Shown here: positions 5,434-42,587 of the stretch, in pieces
Layout: every line of letters starts with the position of its first letter
Position numbering within the stretch: position 1 is the first letter of the stretch
From: Nitrospinota bacterium
GTDB taxonomy: Bacteria; UBA8248
Direction: 5' to 3'
Assembly: GCA_030754595.1 (NCBI GenBank)
Contig: JASLZZ010000134.1
Span: forward strand, 1-43,232
Length of the DNA stretch: 43,232 nucleotides
Notes under the pieces: model-generated
The model's input: the letters and a program-made list of their open reading frames with translations, nothing else
Database searches by the model: none
What the model was told of the DNA's origin: nothing
Made by a program: the position numbers and the translations under genes

Positions 5434-5718
5434 CCGATTCTCCTTATGATTCGGTTGCCGAAGGCCGGCGGCGGGGGGCGAGCCCAGGACCTTGGGTCAA
5501 AGTCATCCGTATACTTGAGACGGACCGGGTTCCGGTGGCGGCCGGCGGCTGTTGGCCGGCCGAGGCCCAACCCCTGTCTGTCTATTTATTATACCGGAAT
5601 CACCGCTTAAATCGAGCCGGTCAATATGGCAATTTGCCCTCCTTGCCGGAATCAGCGGTGGGCCGGTAGGCTGGGCGTACCGGAGCCCGCCTTCCACGGT
5701 GGGTTGGGAGGAGGGGAC

Positions 5719-6957
5719 ATGCTGTTTCGATTCTCGCTCTATGGTTTTTTGAAGAACCAGACCTACTTCGAGCCGTTCCTCATCCTGGCTTTCCGCGAAA
5801 AGGGGCTCTCTTTTTTTCAGATCGGCCTGCTCATCGGTTTTCGCGAGGTTTGCGTCAATCTTCTCGAGATTCCGAGCGGGGCCGTGGCCGACCTCTACGG
5901 CCGGCGCCGGGCGATGATCTTTTCTTTCTCGGCCTACATCGCCTCATTCCTTATTTTCGGTTTCGCGGGCTCGCTGGCCGCCCTGTTCGGGGCGGTGCTG
6001 GCCTTCGCCCTCGGCGAGGCCTTCCGCTCGGGAACCCACAAGGCGATGATCTTCGACTGGCTCAGGGGGCAGGGCCGCGAGGGCGAGCGCACCCGGTTTT
6101 ACGGGTTCACCCGCTCCTGGTCGAAGATGGGCTCCGCCCTCGCCGTGGCCATCTCGGCGGGTTTTATTTTCTCGGGCGCGAGCTACAGCGACGTATTCCT
6201 CCTGGCGGTGATTCCCTACTTGCTCGGTATCGTGAATTTTCTGGGATACCCGGCTGGCCTGGACGGCCGGCGCGGCGAGGGGGCAGGGATTGCCGCCGTT
6301 CTCGGGCATCTCGAGGGCGCGCTTCGCCATACCTTCCGCCTTCCGCCGCTTCGCCGCATCGTCTGCGAGTCGATGGGTTTCGGGGGGACCTACAAGGCGG
6401 CCAAGGATTATATCCAGCCGGTTATTCAACAGGCGGCCCTGGGCCTCGTCCTCCTTGCCGCGTGGGAGGAGCACAAGCGAGTCGCCCTTCTGGTGGGGAG
6501 CGTTTATTTCGTCTTGCATATTCTCTCGAGCGTGGCCAGCCGCGGGGGGTATCGGCTGAGCGCCGCGGCCGGCGGCGAGGAGCGGGCGGCGCGGCTCATC
6601 TGGGCGGGAACTTCGGTTCTTTACGCCGGTCTCGCGGCGGGGCTGTGGATGGGTCATGAAAGCGTGGTCATCGCCGCTTTTATCGGCCTCGCCGTGGCCC
6701 AAAATTTTTGGCGGCCGATTCTGATCAGCCGCATCGACGCCCACGGCTCGCCCGAGGCGGGGGCTACGGTGCTCTCCATCGAAGCGCAGGCGAAATCGCT
6801 TTTCGCGATGATGCTCGCGCCCGCCCTCGGCTTCGCGGTGGACCGGCTGGGGTTGGTTCCGGTCGGGGTGGCGGGTTTTCTCGTGGCTGCTCCGTTCGCC
6901 CTGGGCGGGGTTTTTTGGGCTGGAGCAAAAGGGCGCGAGGCGGGGGCCTCACCCTGA
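5719..6957 (+). CDS. MFS transporter
   Basis: EIPSGAVADLYGRRR (MFS motif A), GEAFRSGT and multiple TM helices; ATG at 5719 behind GGAGGAGG. Confidence 0.9.
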   Translation: MLFRFSLYGFLKNQTYFEPFLILAFREKGLSFFQIGLLIGFREVCVNLLEIPSGAVADLYGRRRAMIFSFSAYIASFLIFGFAGSLAALFGAVLAFALGEAFRSGTHKAMIFDWLRGQGREGERTRFYGFTRSWSKMGSALAVAISAGFIFSGASYSDVFLLAVIPYLLGIVNFLGYPAGLDGRRGEGAGIAAVLGHLEGALRHTFRLPPLRRIVCESMGFGGTYKAAKDYIQPVIQQAALGLVLLAAWEEHKRVALLVGSVYFVLHILSSVASRGGYRLSAAAGGEERAARLIWAGTSVLYAGLAAGLWMGHESVVIAAFIGLAVAQNFWRPILISRIDAHGSPEAGATVLSIEAQAKSLFAMMLAPALGFAVDRLGLVPVGVAGFLVAAPFALGGVFWAGAKGREAGASP

Positions 6958-7049
6958 GCGATGTGACCTCTAGTCTTTACTGGTGAAAAATAGTCGGATG
7001 GCTTCCGAAGCCGTGCGGCTCCGTAGCCGGCGGGCTATCCGGGTCCGTC

Positions 7050-8528
7050 TTAAAGGGCCAACTGGCCCTCGGTGGGTTCCGCTCAGCAGAACCACGATTC
7101 GGTAAGCTTTGGCGGGCGAAGCCGATCGGGGGCGAGGGCGGGAGCCGATCCGGCGCGATCGGGGCGCTCGAGCGTGGCTGCTGCTGCTGCGCGAATCCGC
7201 GCGAAGGTTTCGGCGGGATCCTCACTCTTTCCGGCCGCGTCCTCGGCGATGGCGAGGGTCTCCCCGTGGAGCCGGTCCATTCTCGGATCGGGATGCGACC
7301 AGCGGTGGATGAAATTCTCAGGGTCCATCTCGCCGATGAACGACTGCATCGATTCCCGGCCGAGCAGGTCCGAGCCCGGCGGGACGAGCAGCCGGATGGC
7401 GAACTGAACCGGGTCCACCTCGTCGATGAGTTCGAACTCCTCCACGAAATCTAAAAGCTCGAAATAATCGTCCGGTTTCGTCCAGGGGGTGAAGGCGAGA
7501 AGCGAGGGCCGGATGGGGATCCCCGCGGCGCGGCAGGCCCGCACCACCCGGACGGCCTCCTCGCGGGTGTGCCCCTTCTCGAGGTTTTCAAGGACGGACT
7601 CGCTCAGCGATTCGAGGGCGGTGACGATGAAGGCGCAGCCCAGCTCGCTCAGTTCCGCGAGCAGGCCCTCGTTCTTTGCCAGATGCTCGACCTTGGCGGT
7701 GAAGTCGAAAGTGAGCGAGGGATATTTACTGTGGAGCGTCCGCGCGACGCGCATCGCGTGCCCCGGGCCGTTCAGGAAATCAGGGTCGGCGAAGGTGATG
7801 TGTCTCGCGCCGAGGGTGGTGAGCGCCCGGATGTCCTCCAACACTATTTCAGGCGGAACGGCGAAAAATCGCCCACCGTAGACGGGCGGAATCGGGCAAT
7901 GGAGGCACAGGTGCTTGCAGCCCCGGCTCGCCTCGACCGAGCCCGCCAGAAGATGAACCCCGTCCCTGAGCAAATGGGCGTATGTCTCGAGCGGGGGAAG
8001 CCCTTCGCGGCGAGGGGTGAGCAGCGGAATTTTTTCCAGATTCGGTGCTGCCTGTGCCTTGCGTGTGCCGGCGCCGGGGACATCGACCGAGCCGCGGGCG
8101 CTGGCCGGTTCCCGGGAGGCGGCCAGCGCGCCGACGAGTTCGGAAAGGGTCTCCTCGACTTCCCCGCCGATCACGGAGTCGGCCTCGTTTTCGAGCAGGT
8201 AGTCCGCGTTCAGATTGGCGTAGAGGCCATAGAAGCAGATATGGCAGTCCGGGTTGACATCACGCACCCAGCGGGCCGCCTCGACCCCGAGGCGCAGTGC
8301 GGTGTGCATCGGGACGCTGATTCCGGCGAATAGCGCTCCGGCTGCTTTTTCCGGCGAGAACGGCTCGACAGCCAGATCGAGCGTGGCGGGCGCGTATCCC
8401 GCCCGCCGCAGGAAAGCGAGCGGAGAGGCCAGCCCGATGGGCTGGCGGCCCAACTCGTAGCACGAAATGAGAAGGGTGGCGCCGTGCGCCTTCCAGGTAT
8501 TGTTCACCTTCGAATCCTGACCGGCCAC
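7050..8528 (-). CDS. CUAEP-tail radical SAM selenoprotein (TGA at 7083-7085 read as Sec)
   Basis: CKHLCLHC radical SAM motif and an N-terminal LLISCYELG domain. Reading through the TGA gives ...TESWFC-U-AEPTEGQLAL-TAA, the CUAEP/CCAEP-tail family signature. The exact start is uncertain. Confidence 0.9.
7053..7070 (-). promoter_or_regulatory. Putative bacterial SECIS element
   Basis: mRNA hairpin GAGGGCC-AGUU-GGCCCUU whose apical loop begins 20 nt after the UGA and contains GU, fitting the bacterial SECIS model. Confidence 0.7.
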
Positions 8529-8543
8529 GTGTCCACCGGCACG

Positions 8544-8577
8544 AAAAAGCCCCGGCGCCGATCACCGGGGCCGGGGC
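8544..8577 (-). terminator. Terminator-like hairpin between hesB and the radical SAM gene
   Basis: Minus strand GCCCCGGCCCCGGTGATCGGCGCCGGGGC followed by T5. Confidence 0.65.
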
Positions 8578-8594
8578 GCCTCATTAGGTTGGCC

Positions 8595-8972
8595 TTAGGC
8601 GGTGAAGGAGCTGCCGCAGCCGCAGGTGTCCCCCGCGTTCGGGTTATCGATCTTGAATCCCGAGCCCTGAAGGGTGTCCACGAAGTCGACGGTCGAGCCG
8701 TTCAGCAGCGGGTAGCTGTTGGGGTCGACATAGATGTTGAAGCCCTCGGCTTCGGTCACGTGGTCGGCCGGGTCGTTGCTTTCGTCGAAATAAAGGCCGT
8801 AGCTGTGGCCCGAACAGCCGCCCGCCGTCACGGCGACGCGAAGGCCGAGGCCGGATTTTCCCTCGGCTTCGATGAGTTCGCGCACCTTTGCCTCGGCGAT
8901 GGGGGTGATGGAGATGCCCTCTCGGACAGCGGGTTTTGTATCGTCGAAGAGATTAATCGTTGTGTCGGACAT
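8595..8972 (-). CDS. A-type Fe-S carrier protein (HesB/IscA/ErpA family)
   Basis: GGCSG and terminal NPNA..TCGCGSSF motifs; ATG at 8972 behind AAAGGAG. Confidence 0.95.
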   Translation of the reverse strand: MSDTTINLFDDTKPAVREGISITPIAEAKVRELIEAEGKSGLGLRVAVTAGGCSGHSYGLYFDESNDPADHVTEAEGFNIYVDPNSYPLLNGSTVDFVDTLQGSGFKIDNPNAGDTCGCGSSFTA

Positions 8973-9130
8973 CGGGTGTTTCTCCTTTGGGTGGATCGAT
9001 GTCAAAAGCTGATAGGGATAAATAGTCCGGTCAGGTGGCTCCGATTCCGCTCTATGGCGTCGGTGCGCCTCTCTTGCGGCGGGCGTTTCCGCCGGGCCCA
9101 TCGGCCAGTTGTGCCAGGCCGCGGCTCAGT

Positions 9131-9556
9131 TTATCGTCGGTCAGATGCCCCCCCCATTTCCGCCGGGAGATCGGCGAAAGTCGCTTCCGTGAAAAAATCG
9201 GTTAACCGTTTTTGGGCGAGAGCGAAAACCTCGTTCATCGAACAGAATTCCTCGATTTCGCAACACGACTCCCCATTTTGGCACGTGACCAGGGAAATTG
9301 GTCCGTCGATGGCCTGGATGACCTCTAAGAAATCGATCTCCGAGGAGGCGCGGGCAAGCCGGTAGCCGCCCTTGGGTCCCTGGACCGATTTAACAACTTC
9401 TGCCTTGATGAGCATCGGCATCAGCTTGGCGAGAAACGCCTGGGGAATCTGTTGGGCGCGAGCGATCTCTCCGATGGTGCAGAGCCGATCCGAGTTCTGG
9501 CGGGAGAGATAAACCACCGCCCGCAAAGCGTAGTCTCCGGCCCGGCTGATCTGCAT
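9131..9556 (-). CDS. Rrf2-family transcriptional regulator, IscR-like with Cys cluster
   Basis: MQISRAGDYALRA, SVQGPKGGYRL wing and CQNGESCCEIEEFC; ATG at 9556. Confidence 0.92.
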   Translation of the reverse strand: MQISRAGDYALRAVVYLSRQNSDRLCTIGEIARAQQIPQAFLAKLMPMLIKAEVVKSVQGPKGGYRLARASSEIDFLEVIQAIDGPISLVTCQNGESCCEIEEFCSMNEVFALAQKRLTDFFTEATFADLPAEMGGASDRR

Positions 9557-9617
9557 TCGGCATGTCTCCCTTTTGAGTGCTGCTTGAAAATGGTCCCCGG
9601 GTGTGGTGGCGGCCAGC

Positions 9618-9666
9618 AAACCTGACTCATCCAGTCTGATATAAATGGATCGGACCCAAATGTCAA
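9618..9666 (-). promoter_or_regulatory. Sigma70 promoter overlapped by an IscR type-1-like operator
   Basis: Minus strand TTGACA(9666-9661)-N17-TATATC(9643-9638). The 25-mer ATATCAGACTGGATGAGTCAGGTTT (9642-9618) has the GACT-N5-AGTC core. Confidence 0.75.
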
Positions 9667-25897: not shown

Positions 25898-26089
25898 TAG
25901 ATACCGGACAAAAAAGACCTAAGGGAGATATCTTTTTTCCTTGATTTAGTGAATTATTGGTATATGAATGGTAGTTTTTAGGGGGCCACTCTTAAAGATT
26001 ACGACCAACAATTTACAATTTACAATTTCGATATGGCCGGCGGGAAGAAAGTTCTTGCCCCAGCGCCCCGACCAGGAGTGAGGAGAAAA

Positions 26090-26761
26090 ATGCTTTCTTG
26101 GCTTCCTAGGAATGTGTCAACTTTCGGCGGAGACGTCGACTCCATCTTTACAATGATCTACTACATCGTCGGTATCTGGTTTATCGCCACTCAGGTTTTT
26201 CTCCTTTACTGCATCATCCGCTTCAGGCGCCGCGATGGGCAAAAATCCGACTACACGCCGGGCAACACCATGTCGCAGATGATGTGGATTCTCATCCCTT
26301 GCGCCCTGGTCCTCGTTCTCGATCTTTGGATCGATTTTCGGGGGGCCGATGTCTGGGCCAAGGTCAAGATCAACCAGCCGGCTTCCCAGGTGGTCGTTCG
26401 GCTGACCGCCAAGCAGTTCAACTGGATTTTCACCTATCCGGGGCCGGACGGAAAATTCGGAACCAAGGACGATAAGAAGTTCCAGAACGACATGCATGTG
26501 CCGGTGAACAAGGTCGTCCGGATCATTCTCACGGGCGAGGACGTCATCCACAGTTTCTTCGTGCCCGAGATGCGGCTCAAGCAGGATGTCGTTCCCGGCC
26601 GCGAGATTCCCGCATGGTTTGAGGCCACGCAGACAGGAAAATACGAGATCCCCTGCGCGGAGCTTTGCGGGACCGGGCACACGGGCATGAAAGGATTCCT
26701 CTACGTACACCCGGAGGCGGAGTACAAGAATTGGGTCGCCAAAAATTGGCCGGGTTCTTAA
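26090..26761 (+). CDS. coxB: Cytochrome c oxidase subunit II
   Basis: Two TM helices, QFNW, DVIHSF and CuA motif CAELCGTGHTGM; ATG at 26090 behind AGGAG. Confidence 0.95.
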   Translation: MLSWLPRNVSTFGGDVDSIFTMIYYIVGIWFIATQVFLLYCIIRFRRRDGQKSDYTPGNTMSQMMWILIPCALVLVLDLWIDFRGADVWAKVKINQPASQVVVRLTAKQFNWIFTYPGPDGKFGTKDDKKFQNDMHVPVNKVVRIILTGEDVIHSFFVPEMRLKQDVVPGREIPAWFEATQTGKYEIPCAELCGTGHTGMKGFLYVHPEAEYKNWVAKNWPGS

Positions 26762-26793
26762 GGCTCCCGGGAGAGCCTGGAACCGTTTTTTTT
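26753..26793 (+). terminator. Terminator-like hairpin between coxB and coxA
   Basis: GGTTC..AGGCTC-CCGGGA-GAGCCT.GAACC followed by G and T8. Confidence 0.55.
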
Positions 26794-26825
26794 AATGAAC
26801 GCACGACTCGAACAAGAGGGAAAAC

Positions 26826-28559
26826 ATGAGCGGAACTGCCGCATCGATGCATGATGCCCACCATGAAGCGCCTACGAGCTTTGTGCGCAAATATGTATTC
26901 TCGACCGATCATAAAATGATCGCCAAACAGTATATTTTCATCGCTCTTTTCTGGGCGTTCGTAGGCGGTTTGCTCGCGTATATGTTTCGCTGGCAGCTGG
27001 CCTGGCCCGAGACCCCGGTCTGGGGATTTGGTTGGATATCCGAGGACGCCGATTTCATGCCCACCGGGAGAATCGGCCCCGAGGTGTATAACGCGCTGAT
27101 CACCATGCACGGGACAATCATGGTTTTCTTCGTCGCGATGCCCCTTCTCCTGGCGTCGATGGGGAATTTCCTCATTCCCCTGATGGTCGGCGCGCGCGAT
27201 ATGGCCTTTCCCCGCCTGAACATGCTTTCGGTCTGGGTGTTGGCTACGGCGTCGCTCATTTTGTTGGCTTCGTTTTTCGTCGAAGGGGGGGCCGCCGCGG
27301 CCGGGTGGACGGGCTATCCGCCGCTATCCGCGAAGGTGGATTACACAGGCGTCATCTGGGGGATTGACCTGTGGCTCCTTGCGCTGGCGCTGGAGTTCGC
27401 CTCCTTTCTCATGGGCGGAATTAATTTCCTGGTGACCCCGTTCAACATGCGCACCCGGGGGATGTCGCTCTTCCGCATGCCGCTAATGATCTGGATGATC
27501 GTCATCGCCTCGGTCATTTTCCTCCTCTCGGTAGGGCCCTTGATCGCGGGCGCCGTTTTTCTCCTGCTGGATCGCAACCTGGGGACGAGCTTTTTCCTCC
27601 CCGAGGGGGGAGGGGATCCATTGTTGTGGCAGCATCTGTTCTGGTTCTTCGGGCATCCCGAGGTGTACGTTATTTTCCTGCCCGCGCTCGGGGTGATGTT
27701 GGAGGTCATTTCGACCTTCTCCCGCAAGACGATCTACGGCTACCGGCCGATCATCTACGCCGTATTGACCGCCGGCGTGTTGAGCTTTGTCGTCTGGGCG
27801 CACCATCAGTTCATCTCCGGCCTGGACCCGCGGCTCGCCACTCCGTTCAGCATTACGACAATCCTGATATCGGTTCCCTTCGCCTTTGTCGTGTTTTCGT
27901 TGCTGGCGACCTTGTGGAAAAGTTCTATCCGTCTCGACACCCCTATGTGGTTCGCCATCGGTGGGCTGTCGGTATTCGTTTTCGGCGGCGTGACCGGCAT
28001 CTTCAACGGGTCCGCGCCGGCGGACATCTTCATTCACGACACCCTTTTCGTCGTCGCCCACTTCCACAGCACTTTATTCAGCGCTGTTTTCCTGGGCGGG
28101 TTCTGTGCGATTTACTACTGGTATCCGAAGATGTTCGGCCGGGTGATGGACGAATTCTGGGGGAAGGTGCACTTCGCCGGAACCTACCTGGGCTTTCTGG
28201 CGGTTTTTGTTCCGATGCACCTTGTCGGCGTCGGCGGGATGGTGCGGCGCGTCGCCGACCATACGAAATACGATCTTTTCATACCTCTTCAGCCTTGGAA
28301 CGAATGGATGACCGTCGCCGCGATTGTCCTCTTCCTGTTCCAGTTCGTCTTCGTGGTGAATTTCATCCGGAGTCTCTACTGGGGCAGGGAAGCGGGAGAG
28401 AACCCTTGGGGCGGGACGACGCTCGAGTGGACCACCCCCTCGCCGCCTCCTCACGGAAATTGGCCGGGGGCGATTCCCGAAGTGCACAACGCACCCTACG
28501 AGTATGGTGTTCCCGGCATCGACGGAGAATGGGTGAGTCAGGATCAACCCGCCCCGTGA
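26826..28559 (+). CDS. coxA: Heme-copper oxidase subunit I, A1-type
   Basis: All six His ligands are present (MHG, WFFGHPEVY, WAHH, HFH), with GWTGYPPL and the RR pair. Confidence 0.97.
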   Translation: MSGTAASMHDAHHEAPTSFVRKYVFSTDHKMIAKQYIFIALFWAFVGGLLAYMFRWQLAWPETPVWGFGWISEDADFMPTGRIGPEVYNALITMHGTIMVFFVAMPLLLASMGNFLIPLMVGARDMAFPRLNMLSVWVLATASLILLASFFVEGGAAAAGWTGYPPLSAKVDYTGVIWGIDLWLLALALEFASFLMGGINFLVTPFNMRTRGMSLFRMPLMIWMIVIASVIFLLSVGPLIAGAVFLLLDRNLGTSFFLPEGGGDPLLWQHLFWFFGHPEVYVIFLPALGVMLEVISTFSRKTIYGYRPIIYAVLTAGVLSFVVWAHHQFISGLDPRLATPFSITTILISVPFAFVVFSLLATLWKSSIRLDTPMWFAIGGLSVFVFGGVTGIFNGSAPADIFIHDTLFVVAHFHSTLFSAVFLGGFCAIYYWYPKMFGRVMDEFWGKVHFAGTYLGFLAVFVPMHLVGVGGMVRRVADHTKYDLFIPLQPWNEWMTVAAIVLFLFQFVFVVNFIRSLYWGREAGENPWGGTTLEWTTPSPPPHGNWPGAIPEVHNAPYEYGVPGIDGEWVSQDQPAP

Positions 28560-28644
28560 TTCCGGCGGCGGCGAATGCCCGGTTCTTTAATTCAAATTTT
28601 AGAGGGCAAGCGATGGTATTTGAACCGAAAGGGGGAAATGGAAG

Positions 28645-29232
28645 ATGAGCGTGGAGTCCACCGCGAGTACGGATACGATGGAGGCTGGCGTTCCGGCGGC
28701 CAAGCTGGGAGTTTGGTGGTTCATCGCATCCGAAATCATGGTTTTCGGCGGGGTCCTCGCCTCGTTTATCCTTCTTCGGCTCACGGGGCCGGGATGGGCC
28801 GGGGATATCGAGCACAACAGCGTCCTGCTCGGGTCGATTAACACCCTTGTCCTCCTGACGAGCAGTTTCTCCATCGTCGAGGTTCTCGCGGCCAACAAGG
28901 CCGGCGACCTGGAGAAGTTCAAAAAGTACATGGGAATTACGATTGCCCTGGGCCTTTTGTTCATGGTCATCAAGGGGGTGGAGTACTCAATCCATATCCA
29001 CGAGGGCCTTCTTCCGGACAAGTCCCTGTTCTGGGCTTTCTATTTCGGGATGACGGGATTGCACGGGCTGCACGTCCTGGCCGGAATCGTGGCGAACATT
29101 TCCCTGCTGGTGGTGGTATCCAAACCCGGGGGGCTCGCCCGCTACGGCCATCGGTCGGAGATGTGCGGACTTTACTGGCATTTCGTGGATGTGGTCTGGA
29201 TTTTTCTCTTCCCCCTGCTTTATCTGGGCTGA
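28645..29232 (+). CDS. coxC: Cytochrome c oxidase subunit III (short form)
   Basis: WFIASE, NTLVLLTSS, TGLHGLHV and YWHFVDVVW. Confidence 0.95.
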   Translation: MSVESTASTDTMEAGVPAAKLGVWWFIASEIMVFGGVLASFILLRLTGPGWAGDIEHNSVLLGSINTLVLLTSSFSIVEVLAANKAGDLEKFKKYMGITIALGLLFMVIKGVEYSIHIHEGLLPDKSLFWAFYFGMTGLHGLHVLAGIVANISLLVVVSKPGGLARYGHRSEMCGLYWHFVDVVWIFLFPLLYLG

Positions 29233-30239: not shown

Positions 30240-30890
30240 TCAGGCGTTCCGCAATACATTTTCGATGTGTTTTCTGTCCTCGAGCGCGAACTCGCGGGTC
30301 CATTTCGAGAGCGCGCGGTAGAAATCCGTCTCAGCGTCTTCTTCCGTGCTTGCCGTGAGAAGAGGCATCCATCTCAACAGATGCGCGTCCATGAACCGGG
30401 CCGCGCCCGAGAGGCTCTCCGCGGCGAGGGGGCGGTCTTCACTCCGCCATGCGTTCTCCTCGCGGCCGGCGAGGTGGGCGAGAAACTCGAGTTCGGCGCT
30501 GATGTGATCCATGGCGACGAGGCCGCTGTGGTGCGAGCCGCCGCCGCCTCGGCCTGGGCTGAATCCGCAGGAGCGGTAGAAATCGGTGACGCGGTCGGTG
30601 GCGCTCGAGTTCAGGTGGCCGCTCTCGTCTACCAGAGCGGCCTCGTAGGGAGGGCTAGAGAGCAGAAACAGGTTGGTGAAATCCACGCGCAGGGCTTTTT
30701 CGAAAGACGCTGTTCGCTCAGGCGTTTCCCGGGGGAAGAGAAAAGGGTAGTTGTCCGCCAGGAAGCCGATCAGCTTCGCGTCGGGCGGGTCGAGAAAAGC
30801 GGCGGCCTGGACCCGGTAGACTTTCTGGCGGAGGGCGGCCTGCTCGATCAACTCCTCGCCGCTGGGCAGCCTTCTTCCCAGTGCGTTCAT
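30240..30890 (-). CDS. TorD/DmsD-family molybdoenzyme maturation chaperone
   Basis: PPYE, DHISAELEF and HLLRW. The ATG at 30890 overlaps the stop of the catalytic subunit (ATGA). Confidence 0.9.
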   Translation of the reverse strand: MNALGRRLPSGEELIEQAALRQKVYRVQAAAFLDPPDAKLIGFLADNYPFLFPRETPERTASFEKALRVDFTNLFLLSSPPYEAALVDESGHLNSSATDRVTDFYRSCGFSPGRGGGGSHHSGLVAMDHISAELEFLAHLAGREENAWRSEDRPLAAESLSGAARFMDAHLLRWMPLLTASTEEDAETDFYRALSKWTREFALEDRKHIENVLRNA

Positions 30891-33763
30891 TCGGTCATCT
30901 TGAAGGCACCGGGCTGGGGCTTGTTGGGGCGGTTGAACCACAGGGGCCGTCTGAGGCCTCCGGGCCCGGGCGCGGGGCGGGTCAGCTCGAGCCATTTTTT
31001 GTAGTGGGCGTAACTTTTCTCGGTGTCCACCTCGATGTCGCCGTATCGCTCGTGCGGGGCTGCCTTGTGGACCTTCACGGGTTGATGCCAGCAGTGCATC
31101 CCGCTCACGGGGTCGGGGTTGACCGGGAAGGCGAGGTTCTGGTTCACCCCCACCTCTCGCCACCAGATGCGCGAGGTGTCGGGGTCCTCGCTCTCGAAGG
31201 GCTCGGCCCCGTGAATCTGGCGCATGGCGTAGCGGCCCTCCTCTTTCTCGTCGATTCGCACGAGCGAGGAGGCGATCCGGGGTGCCCCCATGGTTTCGGA
31301 GAGGCGCCAGCGCCCGAGGTGGTGGGCCATGGCAACGATGCCGGGCTTGAGGCCCTCGGTCGCCCAACAGCGGGTGACGTAGTGGCCGATCGGGGTCTCG
31401 ACGCGGACCAGGCCGCCCGTCGCCACCCCGATTCGCCGGGCGTCGGAGGGGTGGATCCACAGCGGATTATTGTGGGTGATCTCGTAGAGCCACTTCACGG
31501 CCGAGCGCGTGTGAATCAGGGTGGGCAGGCGGTAGTTGGGCAGCAGGTCGAACTCGTTGGCCGAGCGGTCCATATCGCGCCAGTAGACATGGGTCTTCAC
31601 GTAGCGGGGTAGGGCCTGCTCGGGCCACTTCCATTCGGCCATGGTGGGGCTGTAAAACTCGAGCTTGCGCGAGGGCGTGCCAAAACCGGCCCGCGCCGCC
31701 CCCCGGCTCATGTTGCCCACCGCCTTGCCCTCCTTGCGGAGTGTCCCGCTCGCCTCGTCCACCTCAGCGCCCTCGAGGGCGTCCGGGGCCAGCTCACGCA
31801 TGTGGACCTCGCAAACTTTGTCCTCGGGGGTGAATACCCCGTAGCGGCGCATGTATTCGAGCGGGGCCAGGCCCTCTTTTTCGGCCGCCTCGGGCAGGCC
31901 CGGCACGTTATTCTCGAACATGTAGCGATAGTACTCATCGACGGTGATCTTCTCGCCCGTCCGGTAGGGGCTCTCGAAGTAGCGCCGGATGCCCAGTTTC
32001 CCGTCCGGGTCGATGCGCCAGGAGAGCTCGATGTGGAGTTCGTCCTCCTCCCAAACCTCACCCGGGTTCGTCTCGCGGCTGTCGGCGATGGTCTCGCCGA
32101 GGCGTTCCCTGGCCGCGCGCATGACGGGCTGGCGGAGGCCCACCCAGCGGGCCGGGTGCGTTTCCTGGCTCTGGTTGTCGTGGCGCTCGGTGGCGATGCC
32201 CATCGGCAGGACGTAGTCGGCGAACCAGGCCGTCTCGTTCCAGGTCGGAGTCAGCGCGACGTGGCAGCCCATCCGGTCGTGGTTCTTGAGCATCTCGATC
32301 CACATGAAACCGTCCGGGTTCGTCCACACCGGGTTGTAGACCCGGGTGAAGTAGGTATCCACCTTATGGCCTTTTTCGCGCATGAGGTGGGGCATCAAAA
32401 AACTCATCTCGTAGTGGGCCAGGGGATACTCGGGCGGGTAGAGCAGCTCGTTCCACTCCCCAGGGCCCGGCGCCGGGTTCGGGTGGGCCGGGGCGAACTT
32501 GTGCCAGCCCGCCAGGTGGGTGCCCCCCACCGTGCCCACCGCCCCCGTCAGGGAGGGCAGCAGATGGAGGCATCGGGCGATCTGCCAGCCGTGGAGGTTG
32601 CCCGTCGCCGCCGCGCGCCAGACGTGAACGCTCAGCCGGCTGCCCGCCCGAGCCACGGCCTGGGCCGCCTCGGCGATCCGGTCGGCAGCGACGCCCGTCT
32701 CCTCGGCCGCATAGGCGAAGGTGAACTCGGCGTATTCTTCCTTCATCCGTGTGACGAAATTCTCAAAGGTGGCCTCATCGCCCGGATGGAGCGCCGCCAT
32801 GTACTCGCCCCAGTTGAACCACTCCTCGACGAACTCGGCGTCGAACTGCCCGGTCTCGAGCAGGTGGCGCGCGAAGGCCAGCAGGATCGCCGATTCGGTC
32901 CCGCTGTAGGCCGGCAGCCAGTGGTCCGCCTTCGCCGCCGTGTTCGATAGCCTCGGGTCGATCACGATGAGTTGCGCGCCCGCCGAGTGGGCCTCGATGA
33001 TCCGCTGGGCCGAGGGGTTGTAGTAATGGCCCGTGTCGAGGTGGCTCGAGATCAGCAGAATGGTCTCGGCGTTCGTGAAATCCGGCGAGGGGCGGTCCCC
33101 CCCGTTCCAGAGCACCTGGCCGATGCGTGCCGAGGAGCTGCACACGTTGGTGTGGCTGTTGTGTCCGTCCACCCCCCACGAGGCCAGGGTGTGGAACATG
33201 AAGCCGTCCTCGCCCGGGCGCCCTACGTGGTAGACGATCTCGTTGCGGCGCTCTTCGATGATGGCCTTACGGATTCGCCCGGCGATGTCGTCGAGCGCCT
33301 CGTCCCAGCTCACCCGCTCCCACTTGCCCTCGCCCCGCTCGCCTGCCCGTTTCATCGGGTACATAATCCGGTCCGGGTCGTAGATCTGGTTTACCGTCAC
33401 CCAGCCCTTCGCGCAGTTGCGCCCCCGCGAGGCCGGGTGAAGGGGGTTGCCCTCGATCTTGCGGATCTTCAGGTCGTCCTTGTCCACGTAGGCCAAAAGC
33501 CCGCAGCCGGCCTCGCAGTTGAAGCACAGCGTCGGAACCAGCATGTAGTTGCGCCGCACCTTATCGGGCCAGTGTGTGCTCTCGTACTCGTGCCAATCGT
33601 CCCACTTCTCCGGAGAGGGGTAGGAGACGAGCGGGCCGTTCGCGCATATATGGTTCTCCTGGCCAGCCGGCGCCGAGGGAGCCCCGGCGGTCAGCAAGTC
33701 CGGCCGACCGAGAGATGCGATGTCCCGCGCTCCCCGGGCCGACTGAAGATGAGGCGCTGCCAT
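30887..33763 (-). CDS. Molybdopterin (DMSO reductase superfamily) oxidoreductase catalytic subunit
   Basis: FS0 motif CFNCEAGC...NCAKG, WERVSWDEAL, HTNVCSS (candidate Cys Mo ligand), ADYVLP and a C-terminal MGD-binding domain. Confidence 0.93.
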   Translation of the reverse strand: MAAPHLQSARGARDIASLGRPDLLTAGAPSAPAGQENHICANGPLVSYPSPEKWDDWHEYESTHWPDKVRRNYMLVPTLCFNCEAGCGLLAYVDKDDLKIRKIEGNPLHPASRGRNCAKGWVTVNQIYDPDRIMYPMKRAGERGEGKWERVSWDEALDDIAGRIRKAIIEERRNEIVYHVGRPGEDGFMFHTLASWGVDGHNSHTNVCSSSARIGQVLWNGGDRPSPDFTNAETILLISSHLDTGHYYNPSAQRIIEAHSAGAQLIVIDPRLSNTAAKADHWLPAYSGTESAILLAFARHLLETGQFDAEFVEEWFNWGEYMAALHPGDEATFENFVTRMKEEYAEFTFAYAAEETGVAADRIAEAAQAVARAGSRLSVHVWRAAATGNLHGWQIARCLHLLPSLTGAVGTVGGTHLAGWHKFAPAHPNPAPGPGEWNELLYPPEYPLAHYEMSFLMPHLMREKGHKVDTYFTRVYNPVWTNPDGFMWIEMLKNHDRMGCHVALTPTWNETAWFADYVLPMGIATERHDNQSQETHPARWVGLRQPVMRAARERLGETIADSRETNPGEVWEEDELHIELSWRIDPDGKLGIRRYFESPYRTGEKITVDEYYRYMFENNVPGLPEAAEKEGLAPLEYMRRYGVFTPEDKVCEVHMRELAPDALEGAEVDEASGTLRKEGKAVGNMSRGAARAGFGTPSRKLEFYSPTMAEWKWPEQALPRYVKTHVYWRDMDRSANEFDLLPNYRLPTLIHTRSAVKWLYEITHNNPLWIHPSDARRIGVATGGLVRVETPIGHYVTRCWATEGLKPGIVAMAHHLGRWRLSETMGAPRIASSLVRIDEKEEGRYAMRQIHGAEPFESEDPDTSRIWWREVGVNQNLAFPVNPDPVSGMHCWHQPVKVHKAAPHERYGDIEVDTEKSYAHYKKWLELTRPAPGPGGLRRPLWFNRPNKPQPGAFKMTE

Positions 33764-33785
33764 TGAGCGGTTCTCCTTATTTCTC

Positions 33786-35306
33786 TTATGAAAGGGGGAC
33801 GGCCTGACCGGCCTTCACCCAAACTCTATCCCAGTAATAAGCTCCGGCCACGGCGAGTATCGCCGCCGTGAGGGCGCCCATGCCGCCCACGCCGCACCAC
33901 CAGATCAAAATGACCGGAACGGCGCAGCCCATCGCAATCGCTCCGCCCCAGAATTCGTTTTTGAGCGGGCCGTCGACCAGAAGCGCCACCGCACGCTCGA
34001 GGGCGGCCGGGCCCGTGCGGTGGGCGAGGGTCGAGAAAATCAGGATCGCCAGGTGGACCAGGAGCGCTCCCGTCAGCACCGATCCCAAGAATAGGAGGGC
34101 TGGAATTTTGTCGGCGACAGGGAAGATGGTGGTGAAGAAGATGAGGCCTGCCGCCCCCTTCACCACCGTCTGGGCGGCGATGTCCACGGTGTTCTCGCTG
34201 CCCCGCCACAGATCCCGCGCCGCCGCCTGGGCGAAGAAAAATCCGGTGTAGATCGAGGTCAGCGCCGCCGCCGCCAGCGTGGGCCAAAGGAGCGTCTCCA
34301 GCGCCCCACGCGAGCCCGCCAGCGCCCCCAGGACCCATAAAGCCGTGAGTACCCCGTCGAGCGCGATAAAATACGTGCCCAACGACATCCAACTGCCCCA
34401 GTTGGGACGGATGAGGATGTAGTAGAACCGCTCGGGGCGCTTCAGATCGGTGACGAGGAGCGCGCCGGTCGCCGCGAGAAGTATCCCGCTCAGGATCGGC
34501 GCCCAGATCGCGAAGAGGGAGCTTTCGTAGCCCAACCGCCACATGATCAGAGCCAGGATCAGTAATCCCGCGCTCAGCCCCTTCATCATCAGGTAACCGA
34601 TGATCTTCCGATCCCACGGTATATTATGGAAGACGTCATACACCGTTCGGCTCTCGCCCGGCTTATTTTCCCACTCGGGAACCATGTCTTGGGTCTGTTC
34701 GTCGGCCTCGCCCTGCTTGTAGATGCCCGATTGACCGGCGGCGGTGGGGTCGAGTGTTTGGCGGCTTCCCTTGAAGTAGTAGATGTTGGGCGAGGTGTTG
34801 TATTCGGCCTTGCGCACCGTTACGGCTTCGCGCGCGATCAGGCCCGAGAGCCGTGAGTCGGCGTCCTCGCGGTCCCCGAAAATCCGGCACTGCGTCGGGC
34901 AAACCACCACGCAGGCCGGCTCCAGGCCCGCCTCGAGGCGGTTCGAGCAAAAATTGCACTTCTCGGCCGTGTTCGTGTTCGGGTCGATGAACAATTGGTC
35001 GTAGGGGCACGCCACCATGCACGCCTTGCAGCCGATGCACCACGAGGGGTCAAGGTCCACGATGCCGTCGGGACGCCGGAAAAGCGCTCCCGTCGGGCAG
35101 ATGCTCCGGCAGGGCGCGGCCGAGCACTGGTTGCACAGAACCGGCAGAAACTCCCGGCGCGTGTCCGGGAAATATCCCTTCTCCACCTCCTTCACCCAGC
35201 ACCGCCAAACGCCAATCGGTATCTCGTGCTCGCTCTTGCACGCTATCGTGCACGCGTGGCATCCGATGCACTGGCTCAGGTCTATCGCCATCCCGTATCG
35301 GGCCAT
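33786..35306 (-). CDS. Four-cluster 4Fe-4S protein (NrfC/PsrB-like) fused to an NrfD/PsrC-type membrane anchor
   Basis: CIGCHAC..C, CNQC..PC..ICP, CIGCKAC..CP, KCNFC..PAC..CP, then about 8 TM helices with DLKRPERF and SWM. Confidence 0.92.
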   Translation of the reverse strand: MARYGMAIDLSQCIGCHACTIACKSEHEIPIGVWRCWVKEVEKGYFPDTRREFLPVLCNQCSAAPCRSICPTGALFRRPDGIVDLDPSWCIGCKACMVACPYDQLFIDPNTNTAEKCNFCSNRLEAGLEPACVVVCPTQCRIFGDREDADSRLSGLIAREAVTVRKAEYNTSPNIYYFKGSRQTLDPTAAGQSGIYKQGEADEQTQDMVPEWENKPGESRTVYDVFHNIPWDRKIIGYLMMKGLSAGLLILALIMWRLGYESSLFAIWAPILSGILLAATGALLVTDLKRPERFYYILIRPNWGSWMSLGTYFIALDGVLTALWVLGALAGSRGALETLLWPTLAAAALTSIYTGFFFAQAAARDLWRGSENTVDIAAQTVVKGAAGLIFFTTIFPVADKIPALLFLGSVLTGALLVHLAILIFSTLAHRTGPAALERAVALLVDGPLKNEFWGGAIAMGCAVPVILIWWCGVGGMGALTAAILAVAGAYYWDRVWVKAGQAVPLS

Positions 35307-39687: not shown

Positions 39688-41559
39688 ATGGCTGATCAAT
39701 CGGATGGAAGCGGCCACAACGGAGGACCTCAAAAGAAGGAAGTTGTAGAAGTCGAATCGGTTGCCATTCGTTTCGCCGGGGACAGCGGCGACGGAATGCA
39801 GCTAACGGGCGATCGATTTTCAACCGCATCGGCAATCGCGGGAAACGACCTGAGAACCTTTCCGGATTATCCCGCCGAGATTAGAGCCCCCATCGGTACC
39901 CTTGCGGGGGTGAGCGCTTTTCAAATCAATTTCAGCAGCAGCGACATCCATACGCCGGGCGACGTGCTCGATGTCCTGGTCGCCATGAACCCTGCCGCGA
40001 TGAAGGGCAATATCGAAGATCTCAAGCGCGGCGGAATACTCATCGCCAACTCGGACAGTTTCACCGAAAAGAATTTCCAGAAAGTGGATCTGGATTCGAA
40101 TCCCCTCGACAACGAAGAGATCAGGGGCAAATACCAGGTGCTCGAGGTGCCCATCACCGGTTTGACGCGCAACGCCCTCGAGGAGTTGGACCTTCAGTCC
40201 AACCTCGCCGACCGCTGTAAAAACTTTTTTGCTCTCGGTCTGATGTTCTGGATGTATTCGCGGCCGATGGAGCACACAAAGAGTTGGATCAAGGACAAGT
40301 TCGGTAGCCGCTCCGAAATTGTGGAGGCCAACGCGCGGGCGCTCGAGGCCGGGTATTACTACGGCGAGAACACCGAAATCATCGCCAACCAGTATGAAGT
40401 GCACGAGGCCACCTACCCCGAAGGAAGATACCGCAACATTTCGGGCAACGTGGCGGTGTCCTACGGGTTTATCGCCGCGGCCCAAAAACTGGGGCTCAAG
40501 CTTTTCTGCGGGGCCTATCCGATAACCCCGGCGAGTGAAGTTCTCCACGAGCTCTCCAAGCATAAGAATTTCGATGTCCTCACGTTCCAGGCCGAGGACG
40601 AAATCGCCGCGGTGTCGGCCGCCATCGGCGCCTCGTTCGCGGGCGCGCTCGGGGTCACCTGCTCGAGCGGGCCGGGCATCGCCCTCAAGGGAGAGGCTAT
40701 CGGCCTTGCCGTCATGACCGAGCTTCCGCTGGTCATTCTCAACGTTCAGCGCGCCGGCCCGAGCACGGGACTCCCCACCAAGACCGAGCAGTCCGACCTG
40801 CTCATGGCGGTTTACGGCCGAAACGGCGAGAGCCCGGTTCCGGTCATCGCGGCGAGCACCCCGGCGGATTGTTATTTTGCGGCCATCGAGGCTTCCCGGA
40901 TCGCCGTGAAGTACATGACGCCGGTCATGGTTCTGACCGACGGCTACCTGGCCAACGGCTCCGTTCCCTGGCTTCTTCCCTCCTTTTCGGATATCCCGGA
41001 AATGGCCGTCGAGCACCGGACCGACCCGGAAAATTTCATGCCCTACGTGCGCGATCCCGAAACCCTTTCCAGGCCCTGGGCCATTCCCGGCACCCCGGGG
41101 CTTCAGCATCGAATCGGAGGGATCGAAAAACAGGACGGCACCGGAAACGTCAATTACGATCCGGCCAACCATGAGCACATGGTCGTCATGCGGGCGGAGA
41201 AAATTGCTCGAATCGCGAAGGACATCGCACCGGTCGAGATCATGGGCGAGGAGAGCGGTAAAGTTCTGGTCGTGGGGTGGGGCGGGACCTATGGCGCCAT
41301 CACGGCGGCGATCGAAGCGCTTCAGGCTAGGGGCGCCTCCGTCTCCCAGGCTCATCTGAAGCACCTGCACCCGTTCCCGGCTAATTTCGAGGAAGTGATG
41401 AGGAAGTTCGATAAGGTTCTGGTGCCGGAACTGAACCTTGGGCAACTGGTCAAGCTGATTCGGTCGGAGTATGTAATCGATGCCATCGGCTACAGCAAAG
41501 TCCAGGGAAAACCCTTCAAGGTCAGCGAGCTTATTACTAAAATTGAGGAGCTGCTCTAG
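39688..41559 (+). CDS. korA: 2-oxoacid:ferredoxin oxidoreductase alpha subunit (gamma-alpha fusion)
   Basis: AGDSGDGMQL, YPITPAS, QAEDEIAA and QRAGPSTGLPTK. Confidence 0.95.
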   Translation: MADQSDGSGHNGGPQKKEVVEVESVAIRFAGDSGDGMQLTGDRFSTASAIAGNDLRTFPDYPAEIRAPIGTLAGVSAFQINFSSSDIHTPGDVLDVLVAMNPAAMKGNIEDLKRGGILIANSDSFTEKNFQKVDLDSNPLDNEEIRGKYQVLEVPITGLTRNALEELDLQSNLADRCKNFFALGLMFWMYSRPMEHTKSWIKDKFGSRSEIVEANARALEAGYYYGENTEIIANQYEVHEATYPEGRYRNISGNVAVSYGFIAAAQKLGLKLFCGAYPITPASEVLHELSKHKNFDVLTFQAEDEIAAVSAAIGASFAGALGVTCSSGPGIALKGEAIGLAVMTELPLVILNVQRAGPSTGLPTKTEQSDLLMAVYGRNGESPVPVIAASTPADCYFAAIEASRIAVKYMTPVMVLTDGYLANGSVPWLLPSFSDIPEMAVEHRTDPENFMPYVRDPETLSRPWAIPGTPGLQHRIGGIEKQDGTGNVNYDPANHEHMVVMRAEKIARIAKDIAPVEIMGEESGKVLVVGWGGTYGAITAAIEALQARGASVSQAHLKHLHPFPANFEEVMRKFDKVLVPELNLGQLVKLIRSEYVIDAIGYSKVQGKPFKVSELITKIEELL

Positions 41560-41561
41560 CC

Positions 41562-42587
41562 GTGGCAACCGAGGCTAAGTCAAACGGGATTGGACTCAAA
41601 TTATCGCGGAAGGATTTTCAGTCGGATCAAACCGTTCGCTGGTGCCCCGGCTGTGGGGATTACGCCATTTTAGCGGGCATTCAGAAACTTCTTCCCCAGC
41701 TGGGAATGCCAAGGGAGAATTTTGTGTTCGTGGGAGGGATCGGCTGCGCTGCCCGGTTCCCCTACTATATGAACACCTTCGGTTTTCATACCATTCACGG
41801 CCGGGCGCCGGGGTTCGCGACGGGGATCAAGGTCACCCAACCCGATCTTTCCGTTTGGGTGATTTCGGGGGACGGCGACGCACTGAGCATCGGCGGAAAC
41901 CATTTGATTCACGCCATGCGCCGGAACATCGGAATCAAAATTCTTCTCTTCAATAACAGAATTTACGGTCTCACCAAGGGACAGTACTCGCCCACCTCGC
42001 TGGTCGGCTCGAAGACGAAATCCACGCCGGTGGGTTCGATCGATTATCCCCTCCACCCGATTTCGCTCGCCGTCGGCGCGGAGTGCTCCTTTATCGCCCG
42101 GGCGGTGGACCGGGACCAGAAGCACATGGCGGAGGTCCTCGACGCGGCCGCCAGGCACGAGGGAACGGCCTTTGTCGAAATTATGCAGAACTGCATCGTT
42201 TTCAACGATGGGGCGTGGCACCAATACACCGAAAAAGGGCTCAAGGAGCAAAACGTGCTCTACCTTGAAGACGGGCAGCCCCTCGTTTTCGGCTCCGAGG
42301 ACGACCGGAAAGGGGTGAAGTTGCACGATTTCAAGACCGATGTTGTCGCCTCGGATGATCAGGATCTGACCGTCCACCGGGTGGACGACGAGGAAGGGGC
42401 TTATGTTCATATGCTCAGCCGCATGGAGGCCGACGGCGGACCGCTGCCCCTGGGGATTTTCCGTAATATCGATCGCCCGCCCTATGAGCGGATGGTAGGC
42501 GAGCAGGTCGCATCCGCCAAGGAGAAAGGCGTGGGGAGTGTCGATGATCTTCTCGCCAGCGGGGACACCTGGATCCACAAAAATTAA
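41562..42587 (+). CDS. korB: 2-oxoacid:ferredoxin oxidoreductase beta subunit
   Basis: WCPGCGD, GIGC, HGR, TPP motif GDGD...NN and YGLTKGQ. Confidence 0.95.
   Translation: MATEAKSNGIGLKLSRKDFQSDQTVRWCPGCGDYAILAGIQKLLPQLGMPRENFVFVGGIGCAARFPYYMNTFGFHTIHGRAPGFATGIKVTQPDLSVWVISGDGDALSIGGNHLIHAMRRNIGIKILLFNNRIYGLTKGQYSPTSLVGSKTKSTPVGSIDYPLHPISLAVGAECSFIARAVDRDQKHMAEVLDAAARHEGTAFVEIMQNCIVFNDGAWHQYTEKGLKEQNVLYLEDGQPLVFGSEDDRKGVKLHDFKTDVVASDDQDLTVHRVDDEEGAYVHMLSRMEADGGPLPLGIFRNIDRPPYERMVGEQVASAKEKGVGSVDDLLASGDTWIHKN

Follow-up and report, generated by a model that had tools for sequence, protein, structure and literature searches.

A CUAEP-tail radical SAM gene of a Nitrospinota bacterium very probably encodes selenocysteine at its apparent stop codon

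In bacteria, an in-frame UGA is decoded as selenocysteine (Sec) when SelB, carrying Sec-tRNA, docks on a hairpin of the mRNA known as the Sec insertion sequence (SECIS), while the ribosome pauses at the UGA and Sec is inserted. Such an element follows a rule of spacing after the UGA and of a G-U in the apical loop; the fdhF-type SECIS of Escherichia coli, for example, is an in-frame hairpin about 11-12 nt past the UGA, with G-U in a small apical loop. The subject here is a radical S-adenosylmethionine (SAM) gene whose apparent stop codon is very probably decoded in this manner. It lies on the minus strand of contig JASLZZ010000134.1 (GenBank assembly GCA_030754595.1), from a Nitrospinota bacterium; the whole stretch of DNA that was analyzed, 43,232 nt, is referred to as the window.

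Two curated families are the closest described systems. NF040546, the "CUAEP/CCAEP-tail radical SAM (seleno)protein" family of NCBIfam, is mentioned once, as uncharacterized, in the available passages of the Haft 2022 preprint (10.1101/2022.07.06.499078), where CU motifs of selenoproteins are also said to cluster in metal-handling proteins; the family is unnamed in the available main-text passages of a 2026 review of the prokaryotic selenoproteome (PMC13188914). The second family is ArsL (NF040542). According to the available parts of one report, ArsL cleaves SAM to methylthioadenosine (MTA) and a 3-amino-3-carboxypropyl (ACP) radical or organometallic species, is so far the only CX3CX2C radical SAM enzyme reported to make an ACP radical, and binds no cluster at its RCCLKC tail (10.1101/2024.02.01.577332). 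The three Cys residues of this tail bind As(III), and removal of the tail abolishes formation of hydroxyarsinothricin (AST-OH), as stated in the available parts of two reports (10.1101/2024.02.01.577332; 10.64898/2026.04.29.721666).

The UGA codon and its counterparts in homologues

The open reading frame (ORF) listed at this locus, 7083-8528 on the minus strand, starts with GTG and encodes 481 amino acids ending in PPKLTESWFC before a TGA. Past the TGA the same frame runs through GCG GAA CCC ACC GAG GGC CAG TTG GCC CTT to a TAA. The features of the gene are as follows.

7050-8528, minus: predicted CUAEP-tail radical SAM selenoprotein gene; 492 codons with a GTG start and Sec482, then TAA, when TGA is translated as U
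7083-7085, minus: UGA very probably read as Sec482, directly after Cys481 (7088-7086), judging from the in-frame translation and the TGA/Cys column in homologues
7053-7082, minus: ten post-UGA codons, AEPTEGQLAL, followed by TAA (7052-7050); AEPT..Q[LF] is conserved in Sec and Cys forms
7053-7070, minus: SECIS-type hairpin with a 7-bp stem (7070-7064 with 7059-7053) and an AGUU loop (7063-7060), based on the local fold and on conservation and compensatory changes in Sec forms only
7896-7919, minus: CX3CX2C radical SAM cluster motif (C204, C208 and C211), in columns invariant among 70 homologues

The GTG at 8528 gives an N-terminus similar in length to those of homologues, and an alternative GTG at 8507 is possible. 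The original prediction, made from the letters alone, had claimed that the frame continues past WFC to AEPTEGQLAL and a TAA, and that a hairpin follows at SECIS distance. The sequence agrees in both respects: the ORF with its extension spans exactly 7050-8528, and 12 nt lie between the UGA and the hairpin, GAGGGCC-AGUU-GGCCCUU.

With Sec entered as Cys, the protein scored 649.4 bits against NF040546 (cut-off 500), residues 19-491 aligning with profile positions 2-467 of 468; a genome-level search with the same profile gave 642.9 bits, with one TGA inside the match. Pfam Radical_SAM (PF04055) was matched at residues 199-339 (55.7 bits), and the C-terminal C-[U/C]-A-E-P motif is present as ESWFC-U-AEPTEGQLAL. 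Judged by its sequence, the gene is thus an ordinary member of an already curated selenoprotein family, with a full-length match, the CX3CX2C motif and a C-U-A-E-P tail that has Sec where other members have Cys; it differs in that this lineage has the shortest tail seen, stopping right after the SECIS (GQLAL-stop). The nearest named family is ArsL, whose profile scored 304.5 bits, under its cut-off of 450. The protein is also 37% identical over 426 residues to an RCCLKC-tail (ArsL-family) protein of Priestia. Proteins of the two families share a common domain architecture and a Cys-rich C-terminal tail, which is R-CC-LK-C with three As(III)-binding cysteines in ArsL but C-U-AEP, using Sec, in the window protein.

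Homologues argue strongly for recoding. Within the phylum of the window, NF040546 was found in 49 of 51 genomes (48 over the cut-off), and each of the 48 matches extending to the tail contains a single in-frame TGA. At the DNA level, TGC-TGA-GCN-GAR-CCC is present in 31 of 31 sequences (the window and 30 fetched loci). Of 30 peptides compared from these sequences, 29 share the tail WFC-U-AEPT[EQR]GQLA[LF], and the remaining one (L056) reads WYC-U-AEPTEEQFAL. A scan of a species-genome collection (one genome per species) gave at least 599 candidate stretches, of which at least 598 were confirmed as relatives. Among the best 80 of these relative loci, taken from other phyla for a comparison of tails, the codon in question reads TGA 57 times and TGY (Cys) 18 times, with five loci lacking the motif; the AEPT..Q[LF] that follows is conserved in both the Sec and the Cys forms.

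Public annotation truncates most of these genes. The 120 best matches among database proteins comprise 101 that stop exactly at W[FY]C, 18 Cys forms complete with the CCAEP tail and one fragment; the window's own entry is the truncated protein of 481 amino acids. Labels on Sec-form records include Rokubacteria/Methylomirabilota, Blastocatellia and other Acidobacteriota, Gemmatimonadota, Planctomycetota, Poribacteria and Chloroflexi, and Nitrospir* or Manganitrophus labels stand on 15 of the 18 Cys forms. The nearest named records, 65-68% identical, are metagenome-assembled genomes labelled Candidatus Tectomicrobia and Nitrospinae. A cultured organism also carries a Sec-form homologue: Thermomicrobium roseum DSM 5159 has one on its megaplasmid (NC_011961.1; locus L154, 6953-8389), with the tail WFC-U-AEPLEDPSGP..., flanked by a divergent pyridoxal-phosphate-dependent aminotransferase gene and a convergent major facilitator superfamily (MFS) transporter gene. 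Its listed coding sequence, too, ends at the TGA.

The machinery for Sec insertion was found in the genome (3.55 Mb in 138 contigs; 96.9% completeness, 6.4% contamination). The selA (551.8 bits), selB (364.5 bits) and selD (345 bits) genes all scored above their cut-offs, as did a tRNA-Sec at 73.6 bits, which ARAGORN also calls tRNA-SeC with anticodon tca. Contamination does not explain these genes, since selA is present in 49 of the 51 genomes of the phylum, the two misses being the least complete ones (67% and 79%). The selD match contains one in-frame TGA at its GGUGSK site, that is, selD of this genome appears to be a selenoprotein gene itself (GG-U-GSK; contig C16, UGA at about 1528); its UGA precedes an 11-nt spacer and then a 6-bp GC-rich stem, a spacing like that of the radical SAM gene.

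Taken together, membership of NF040546 and Sec at the apparent stop are very probably both correct. Each checkable part of what had been proposed beforehand on these points was borne out. The family name given, CUAEP/CCAEP with Sec and Cys variants, is that of the profile matched, and both variants were seen; the stated kinship to ArsL was right; the reaction of the family is indeed described as uncharacterized in the available passages cited above; Cys or Sec occupies one column before a conserved AEP; selA, selB, selD and the tRNA-Sec accompany the gene; and standard annotation does truncate it.

A hairpin downstream of the UGA

Locally, the stem of lowest free energy is the hairpin at 7070-7053, whose 3' arm runs up to the stop codon. 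Taken on its own, the 71-nt fold is unexceptional (z = -1.66; 14 of 200 shuffles fold equally well). Because a single-sequence fold is weak evidence, the case for a SECIS rests on comparison. The 42 nt after the codon have a mean folding energy of -15.1 kcal/mol in Sec forms (n = 57) vs. -7.5 kcal/mol in Cys forms (n = 18), with a Mann-Whitney p of 2.8e-8 that is overstated, as the sequences are related and differ in G+C content. When the window was aligned with 55 of these Sec loci, all but L114 and L140, whose tails are in another register, one hairpin emerged in two registers, with AGUU or AGUUN as the loop, and at least five contiguous pairs closing at the same column in 53 of the 56 sequences.

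Covariation was assessed in the 36 sequences with a 5-nt loop against 500 shuffles and slid controls. Pairing reached 86.9% of cells (77.2 +/- 1.4 in shuffles), two-sided changes 40 cells (14.5 +/- 2.8) and the covariation score 0.478 (0.262), and none of the 500 shuffles attained any of these values; slid controls gave 20.6-56.7% pairing and 2-15 cells with two-sided changes. More than chance would allow, a hairpin thus appears to be kept with compensatory changes in TGA-type homologues of several phyla and to be absent from Cys-type ones.

Several points weigh against reading this hairpin as a SECIS. Two of the five covariation measures, double-change pairs (5 vs. 5.2 in shuffles; 431 of 500 reach this value) and further pair types (11 vs. 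11.2; 429 of 500), were not above expectation. The significance of the shuffle test, like that of the Mann-Whitney test, is overstated because the compared sequences are related, and conservation of the hairpin is partly at the protein level since it overlaps coding sequence. No SECIS or credible RNA family was found by Rfam at 6500-9000 with E up to 10, a null that says nothing against the hairpin, as Rfam appears to have no model for the element.

Like the fdhF-type SECIS, the GC-rich hairpin of this gene lies inside the reading frame at a similar distance from the UGA and has G-U in a small loop, but it has another sequence and sits at the very end of the ORF; the SECIS would therefore dictate the last six residues of the protein. 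According to this scheme, SelB with Sec-tRNA would dock on the hairpin at the UGA, Sec would be inserted, and translation would terminate ten codons later at the TAA, the last six codons serving as the SECIS in this lineage.

Fold, conserved cysteines and gene neighbourhood

An AlphaFold2 model built from 70 aligned homologues had a pLDDT of 92.3 and a pTM of 0.91; residues 461-480 scored about 85-92 and the last 12 residues 63-68. In the model, a Rossmann-like (B12-binding-like) domain at the N-terminus is followed by a CX3CX2C radical SAM barrel, a helical C-terminal part and a conserved tail of the form RPPRLTExWFC-U-AEP. The best Foldseek match in the PDB was AprD4 (6fd2; E 2.3e-18, TM 0.65), followed by OxsB, TsrM, MgmA, CysS and TokK, with MiaB and RimO further down (TM about 0.5-0.56). 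AprD4 and the five enzymes after it share the overall fold with its N-terminal B12-binding-like domain, but are only 15-19% identical to the window protein, and none has a Cys-Sec tail. A sequence search of the PDB returned remote matches only (best 9ccb, E 1.1e-06), and a structure of ArsL was absent from these matches and from the fold matches listed.

The fold resembles both B12-dependent enzymes (OxsB and TsrM) and AprD4, which is not known to need cobalamin. The B12-binding domain (PF02310) was matched at 22.4 bits, below its gathering score of 32.1, and cobalamin use by the window protein is not indicated. Among the 70 homologues, C204, C208, C211 and C481 are invariant. Four further cysteines are conserved in the family, C23 being invariant and C95, C98 and C298 present in at least 90% of sequences; the Priestia RCCLKC-tail protein of the ArsL family has T, A, T and V at these positions. 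In the secondary structure of the model, C23 follows strand 1, C95 precedes strand 4 and C98 lies inside strand 4.

Around the gene, four further features were noted.

8548-8572, minus: terminator-like hairpin, a 10-bp stem then a U-run, between the carrier and radical SAM genes
8595-9101, minus: A-type Fe-S cluster carrier gene (IscA/ErpA-like), directly upstream; Pfam Fe-S_biosyn at residues 63-163
9131-9619, minus: gene for an Rrf2-family (IscR-like) regulator, lying upstream of the carrier; Pfam Rrf2, TIGR00738 at 122.8 bits
6994-7008, minus: weak terminator-like site, 42 nt past the TAA; 5-bp stem, a consensus match only

The minus-strand order is thus regulator, carrier, hairpin and radical SAM gene, followed by a convergent MFS gene, with clpB-dnaK-dnaJ diverging upstream. 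The carrier scored 119.6 bits against TIGR00049 (cut-off 58.8) and 112 against ErpA, under the cut-off of 117. From the first ATG its ORF has 168 amino acids, with the domain from residue 63, while homologues have 122-139; the true start probably lies downstream of 9101. A carrier lies upstream in all ten loci of the same taxonomic family (within about 170 bp in eight, about 0.9-1 kb off in two), and the Rrf2 gene is at the same place in five of the ten. In a second family of the phylum (f4), none of four loci has the carrier upstream, and all four have a YggX-like Fe(2+)-trafficking gene there.

The hairpin at 8548-8572, with eight G-C pairs in its stem, falls within a gap of 66 nt, and a like hairpin with a U-run stands at the same place in seven of nine related loci. 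It leaves no space for a promoter ahead of the start at 8528. Judging from sequence, it may act as an attenuator that lowers the level of the radical SAM transcript.

Conserved partners were sought by clustering all ORFs within 5 kb of 75 tail-motif loci and Pfam-scanning 38 flanking ORFs; the resulting counts are descriptive, as related genomes are not independent. An Fe-S carrier gene adjoins the radical SAM gene in 37 of the 75 loci, in four domain architectures: Fe-S_biosyn alone (8), Nfu_N with NifU (17), NifU alone (9) and Fe-S_biosyn with NifU (NfuA-like; 4). All 38 carriers lie at most about 2.3 kb from the radical SAM gene, and mostly within a few hundred bases of it, the search having covered 5 kb on each side. 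In the lineage of the window, the carrier beside the NF040546 gene is A-type, not Nfu.

A second recurrent neighbour, in 34 of the 75 loci, is an ATP-grasp gene (ATP-grasp_4 with LAL_C2; weak BacD and DdaF matches) resembling L-amino-acid ligases (LAL); this label and the DUF169 label below come from a Pfam scan of cluster representatives only. In the window's own genome, an ATP-grasp homologue (50% identity) is on another contig (C34) than the radical SAM gene, tail to tail with a gene for a NifU-domain protein of 182 amino acids. This convergent pair (L152, 840-2739) occurs in six of six related loci, and the same arrangement is found after the radical SAM gene in three loci of Acidobacteriota. 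Across the phylum, 46 of 51 genomes have the ATP-grasp gene. It is missing from the two genomes without the radical SAM gene (99% and 92% complete) and from three more (67%, 79% and 95%). Five of seven f4 genomes have a second ATP-grasp paralogue directly downstream of the radical SAM gene. The copy adjacent to that gene is 44-48% identical to the ATP-grasp protein of the window's genome, and the other copy 50-55%, so that orthology is ambiguous.

Two other candidate partners were rejected. DUF169 neighbours the radical SAM gene in 19 of the 75 loci elsewhere, but in this phylum the two genomes without the radical SAM gene do have the DUF169 homologue of the window's genome, whereas all seven f4 genomes, which carry the radical SAM gene, lack it. 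The convergent MFS gene of the window (5626-6957) recurs in one of 14 related loci and is not similar to the one that adjoins the T. roseum homologue; an Atg22-like MFS gene, which was not compared with that of the window, is found in seven of the 75 loci.

An arsenic setting was seen at an ArsL-family locus. On plasmid pBEH3 of Priestia filamentosa (L155; 732-1955 and 3992-5266), an RCCLKC-tail gene stands in an arsenic island beside genes for ArsR, a MIP (aquaglyceroporin-type) channel, ArsN1 and an arsenic transporter. The island also has an ATP-grasp gene, distant kin of the CUAEP-linked one (22% identity, E 2e-22); at this one RCCLKC-tail locus, therefore, an LAL-like ATP-grasp gene is nearby, as for CUAEP-tail genes. 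Among the 33 window ORFs scanned with Pfam, none was arsM, arsN, arsR or an arsenic transporter gene, although small ORFs or unscanned stretches could hide one.

Possible roles of the Cys-Sec tail

By analogy with ArsL, its nearest characterized relative, the enzyme would reductively cleave SAM at a [4Fe-4S] cluster. We suggest, tentatively, that the vicinal Cys-Sec pair on the C-terminal arm could carry a soft atom, a metalloid or a chalcogen, into the active site, with C23 or C298 as a possible third ligand, and that a carbon-heteroatom bond would form after this delivery. An ArsL-like model, in which a conserved, partly ordered C-terminal arm brings Cys-Sec and its soft atom to the SAM-cleaving cluster, would be the most economical. 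That the pair may bind a metal(loid) such as As, as the original prediction proposed, fits the As(III) binding shown for the ArsL tail. There are precedents for the working of such an arm, with no homology claimed: MerA and thioredoxin reductase, of unrelated fold and family, use C-terminal vicinal Cys-Cys or Cys-Sec arms to carry Hg(II) or electrons to a buried active site. The recurring neighbours suggest that the enzyme probably depends on a dedicated iron or Fe-S supply (A-type carrier, Nfu, NfuA-like or YggX-like), and that it probably shares a small pathway with the LAL-like ATP-grasp enzyme.

Some observations speak against this proposal. The protein falls short of the ArsL cut-off, and its tail offers two chalcogens vs. 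three thiols in ArsL. The ars genes were not found among the 33 scanned window ORFs, and the housekeeping surroundings (clpB, dnaK and dnaJ) together with near-universality in the phylum would fit a core function better than an antibiotic pathway. The link with iron and Fe-S genes could reflect no more than what any radical SAM enzyme, being fragile, requires in an aerobic host; the window carries cytochrome c oxidase genes. Finally, the terminator-like hairpin between the carrier and radical SAM genes, seen in seven of nine related loci as well, weakens the case for their co-transcription.

Other explanations of the gene and its tail differ widely in their likelihood. That the UGA is a genuine stop, giving a product of 481 residues ending in WFC with the hairpin as a transcript-end structure, agrees with the calls of gene finders and with the position of the hairpin at the 3' end of the gene, but is very improbable: AEPT..Q[LF] is conserved as protein in Cys forms, where the region has no hairpin; Cys occupies the same column in 18 of 80 loci; the curated family model extends through the tail; a U-run is missing from the hairpin, and many Sec forms continue for another 5-20 codons beyond it; and the genome holds the full Sec machinery. 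An ArsL orthologue that makes hydroxyarsinothricin from arsenite is scarcely to be expected either. ArsL is the nearest named family (304.5 bits), and the RCCLKC-tail protein has the same architecture at 37% identity, but the score is under the cut-off of 450, the RCCLKC motif is absent, and the scanned window ORFs include none of arsM, arsN, arsR and an arsenic transporter gene, while the RCCLKC-tail locus has genes for ArsR, ArsN1, a MIP channel and arsenic transport.

Two roles that differ from soft-atom delivery are more credible than these, yet each is rather unlikely. The tail, together with C23, C95, C98 and C298, might ligate or service an auxiliary Fe-S cluster, perhaps a sacrificial one as in lipoyl synthase, whose auxiliary cluster is consumed and restored by NfuA. 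Such a cluster would explain the dedicated Fe-S carriers, which occur in 37 of 75 loci, with the YggX-like gene in four of four further ones; it would also agree with the four extra conserved cysteines, all replaced in the one RCCLKC-tail protein, and with fold matches to MiaB and RimO, which hold an N-terminal auxiliary cluster. In the model, however, the parallel sheet would place C23 and C95/C98 on opposite edges. AprD4 and ArsL lack such a cluster, and the ArsL tail was shown not to bind one. A C23/C95/C98 cluster is kept only as a rival because the strand topology of the model argues against a shared site. The pair might instead be a redox arm that cycles between selenenylsulfide and selenolate/thiolate and supplies electrons or an H atom to the active site, either for the reduction of an intermediate or for quenching the radical of a product. 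Mammalian thioredoxin reductase has such an arm in its C-terminal Gly-Cys-Sec-Gly, and interchange of Sec and Cys at one column, seen here among homologues, is the usual signature of a redox-active catalytic residue. That the tail has two chalcogens only, in a housekeeping context with no metalloid genes among the scanned window ORFs, would be in keeping with this role. On the other side, ArsL, the only characterized relative, uses its Cys-rich tail for binding substrate and not for redox chemistry, no thioredoxin-like partner recurs among the neighbours, and CU motifs cluster in metal-handling proteins, as stated in the available passages of 10.1101/2022.07.06.499078.

Whatever the role, the gene is 11 residues longer than database entries show, and the residue pair of the tail most likely to matter is affected; truncation at the UGA affects 101 of the 120 public protein entries nearest to it. 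The family is widespread (at least 598 relatives in the species-genome collection) and is the closest relative of ArsL. Its conserved context gives partners to co-express, namely five kinds of Fe-S/iron trafficking gene and the LAL-like ATP-grasp gene, and these partners, with the four family-specific cysteines, make its function more testable. Assays without recoding would be possible through T. roseum DSM 5159 or the natural Cys forms.

Soft-atom delivery by the Cys-Sec arm may also be set in a wider scheme, which is speculative and less likely still than any of the tail functions above. The CUAEP-tail enzyme, an Fe-S carrier and the LAL-like ATP-grasp enzyme might form a widespread, so far undescribed three-gene pathway of bacteria that are mostly aerobic and are associated with soil, groundwater or sponges. 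Here, Se, S, As or Sb on the Cys-Sec arm would become bonded to an ACP radical or organometallic intermediate of the ArsL type, and the ATP-grasp enzyme would ligate the unusual amino acid so made. If true, the family would be only the second among radical SAM enzymes known to perform ACP chemistry on a canonical CX3CX2C motif, and the first whose substrate is held by Sec.

Elsewhere in the window, genes for cytochrome c oxidase subunits II, I and III lie at 26033-29232 (plus strand) and a 2-oxoacid:ferredoxin oxidoreductase pair at 39688-42587 (plus strand), which places aerobic respiratory genes beside oxygen-sensitive enzymes. At 30887-35306 (minus strand), a molybdopterin-oxidoreductase-like protein of 958 amino acids is followed by a fused 4Fe-4S dicluster/NrfD-like membrane protein, a layout that recalls alternative complex III or a polysulfide-reductase-type complex.

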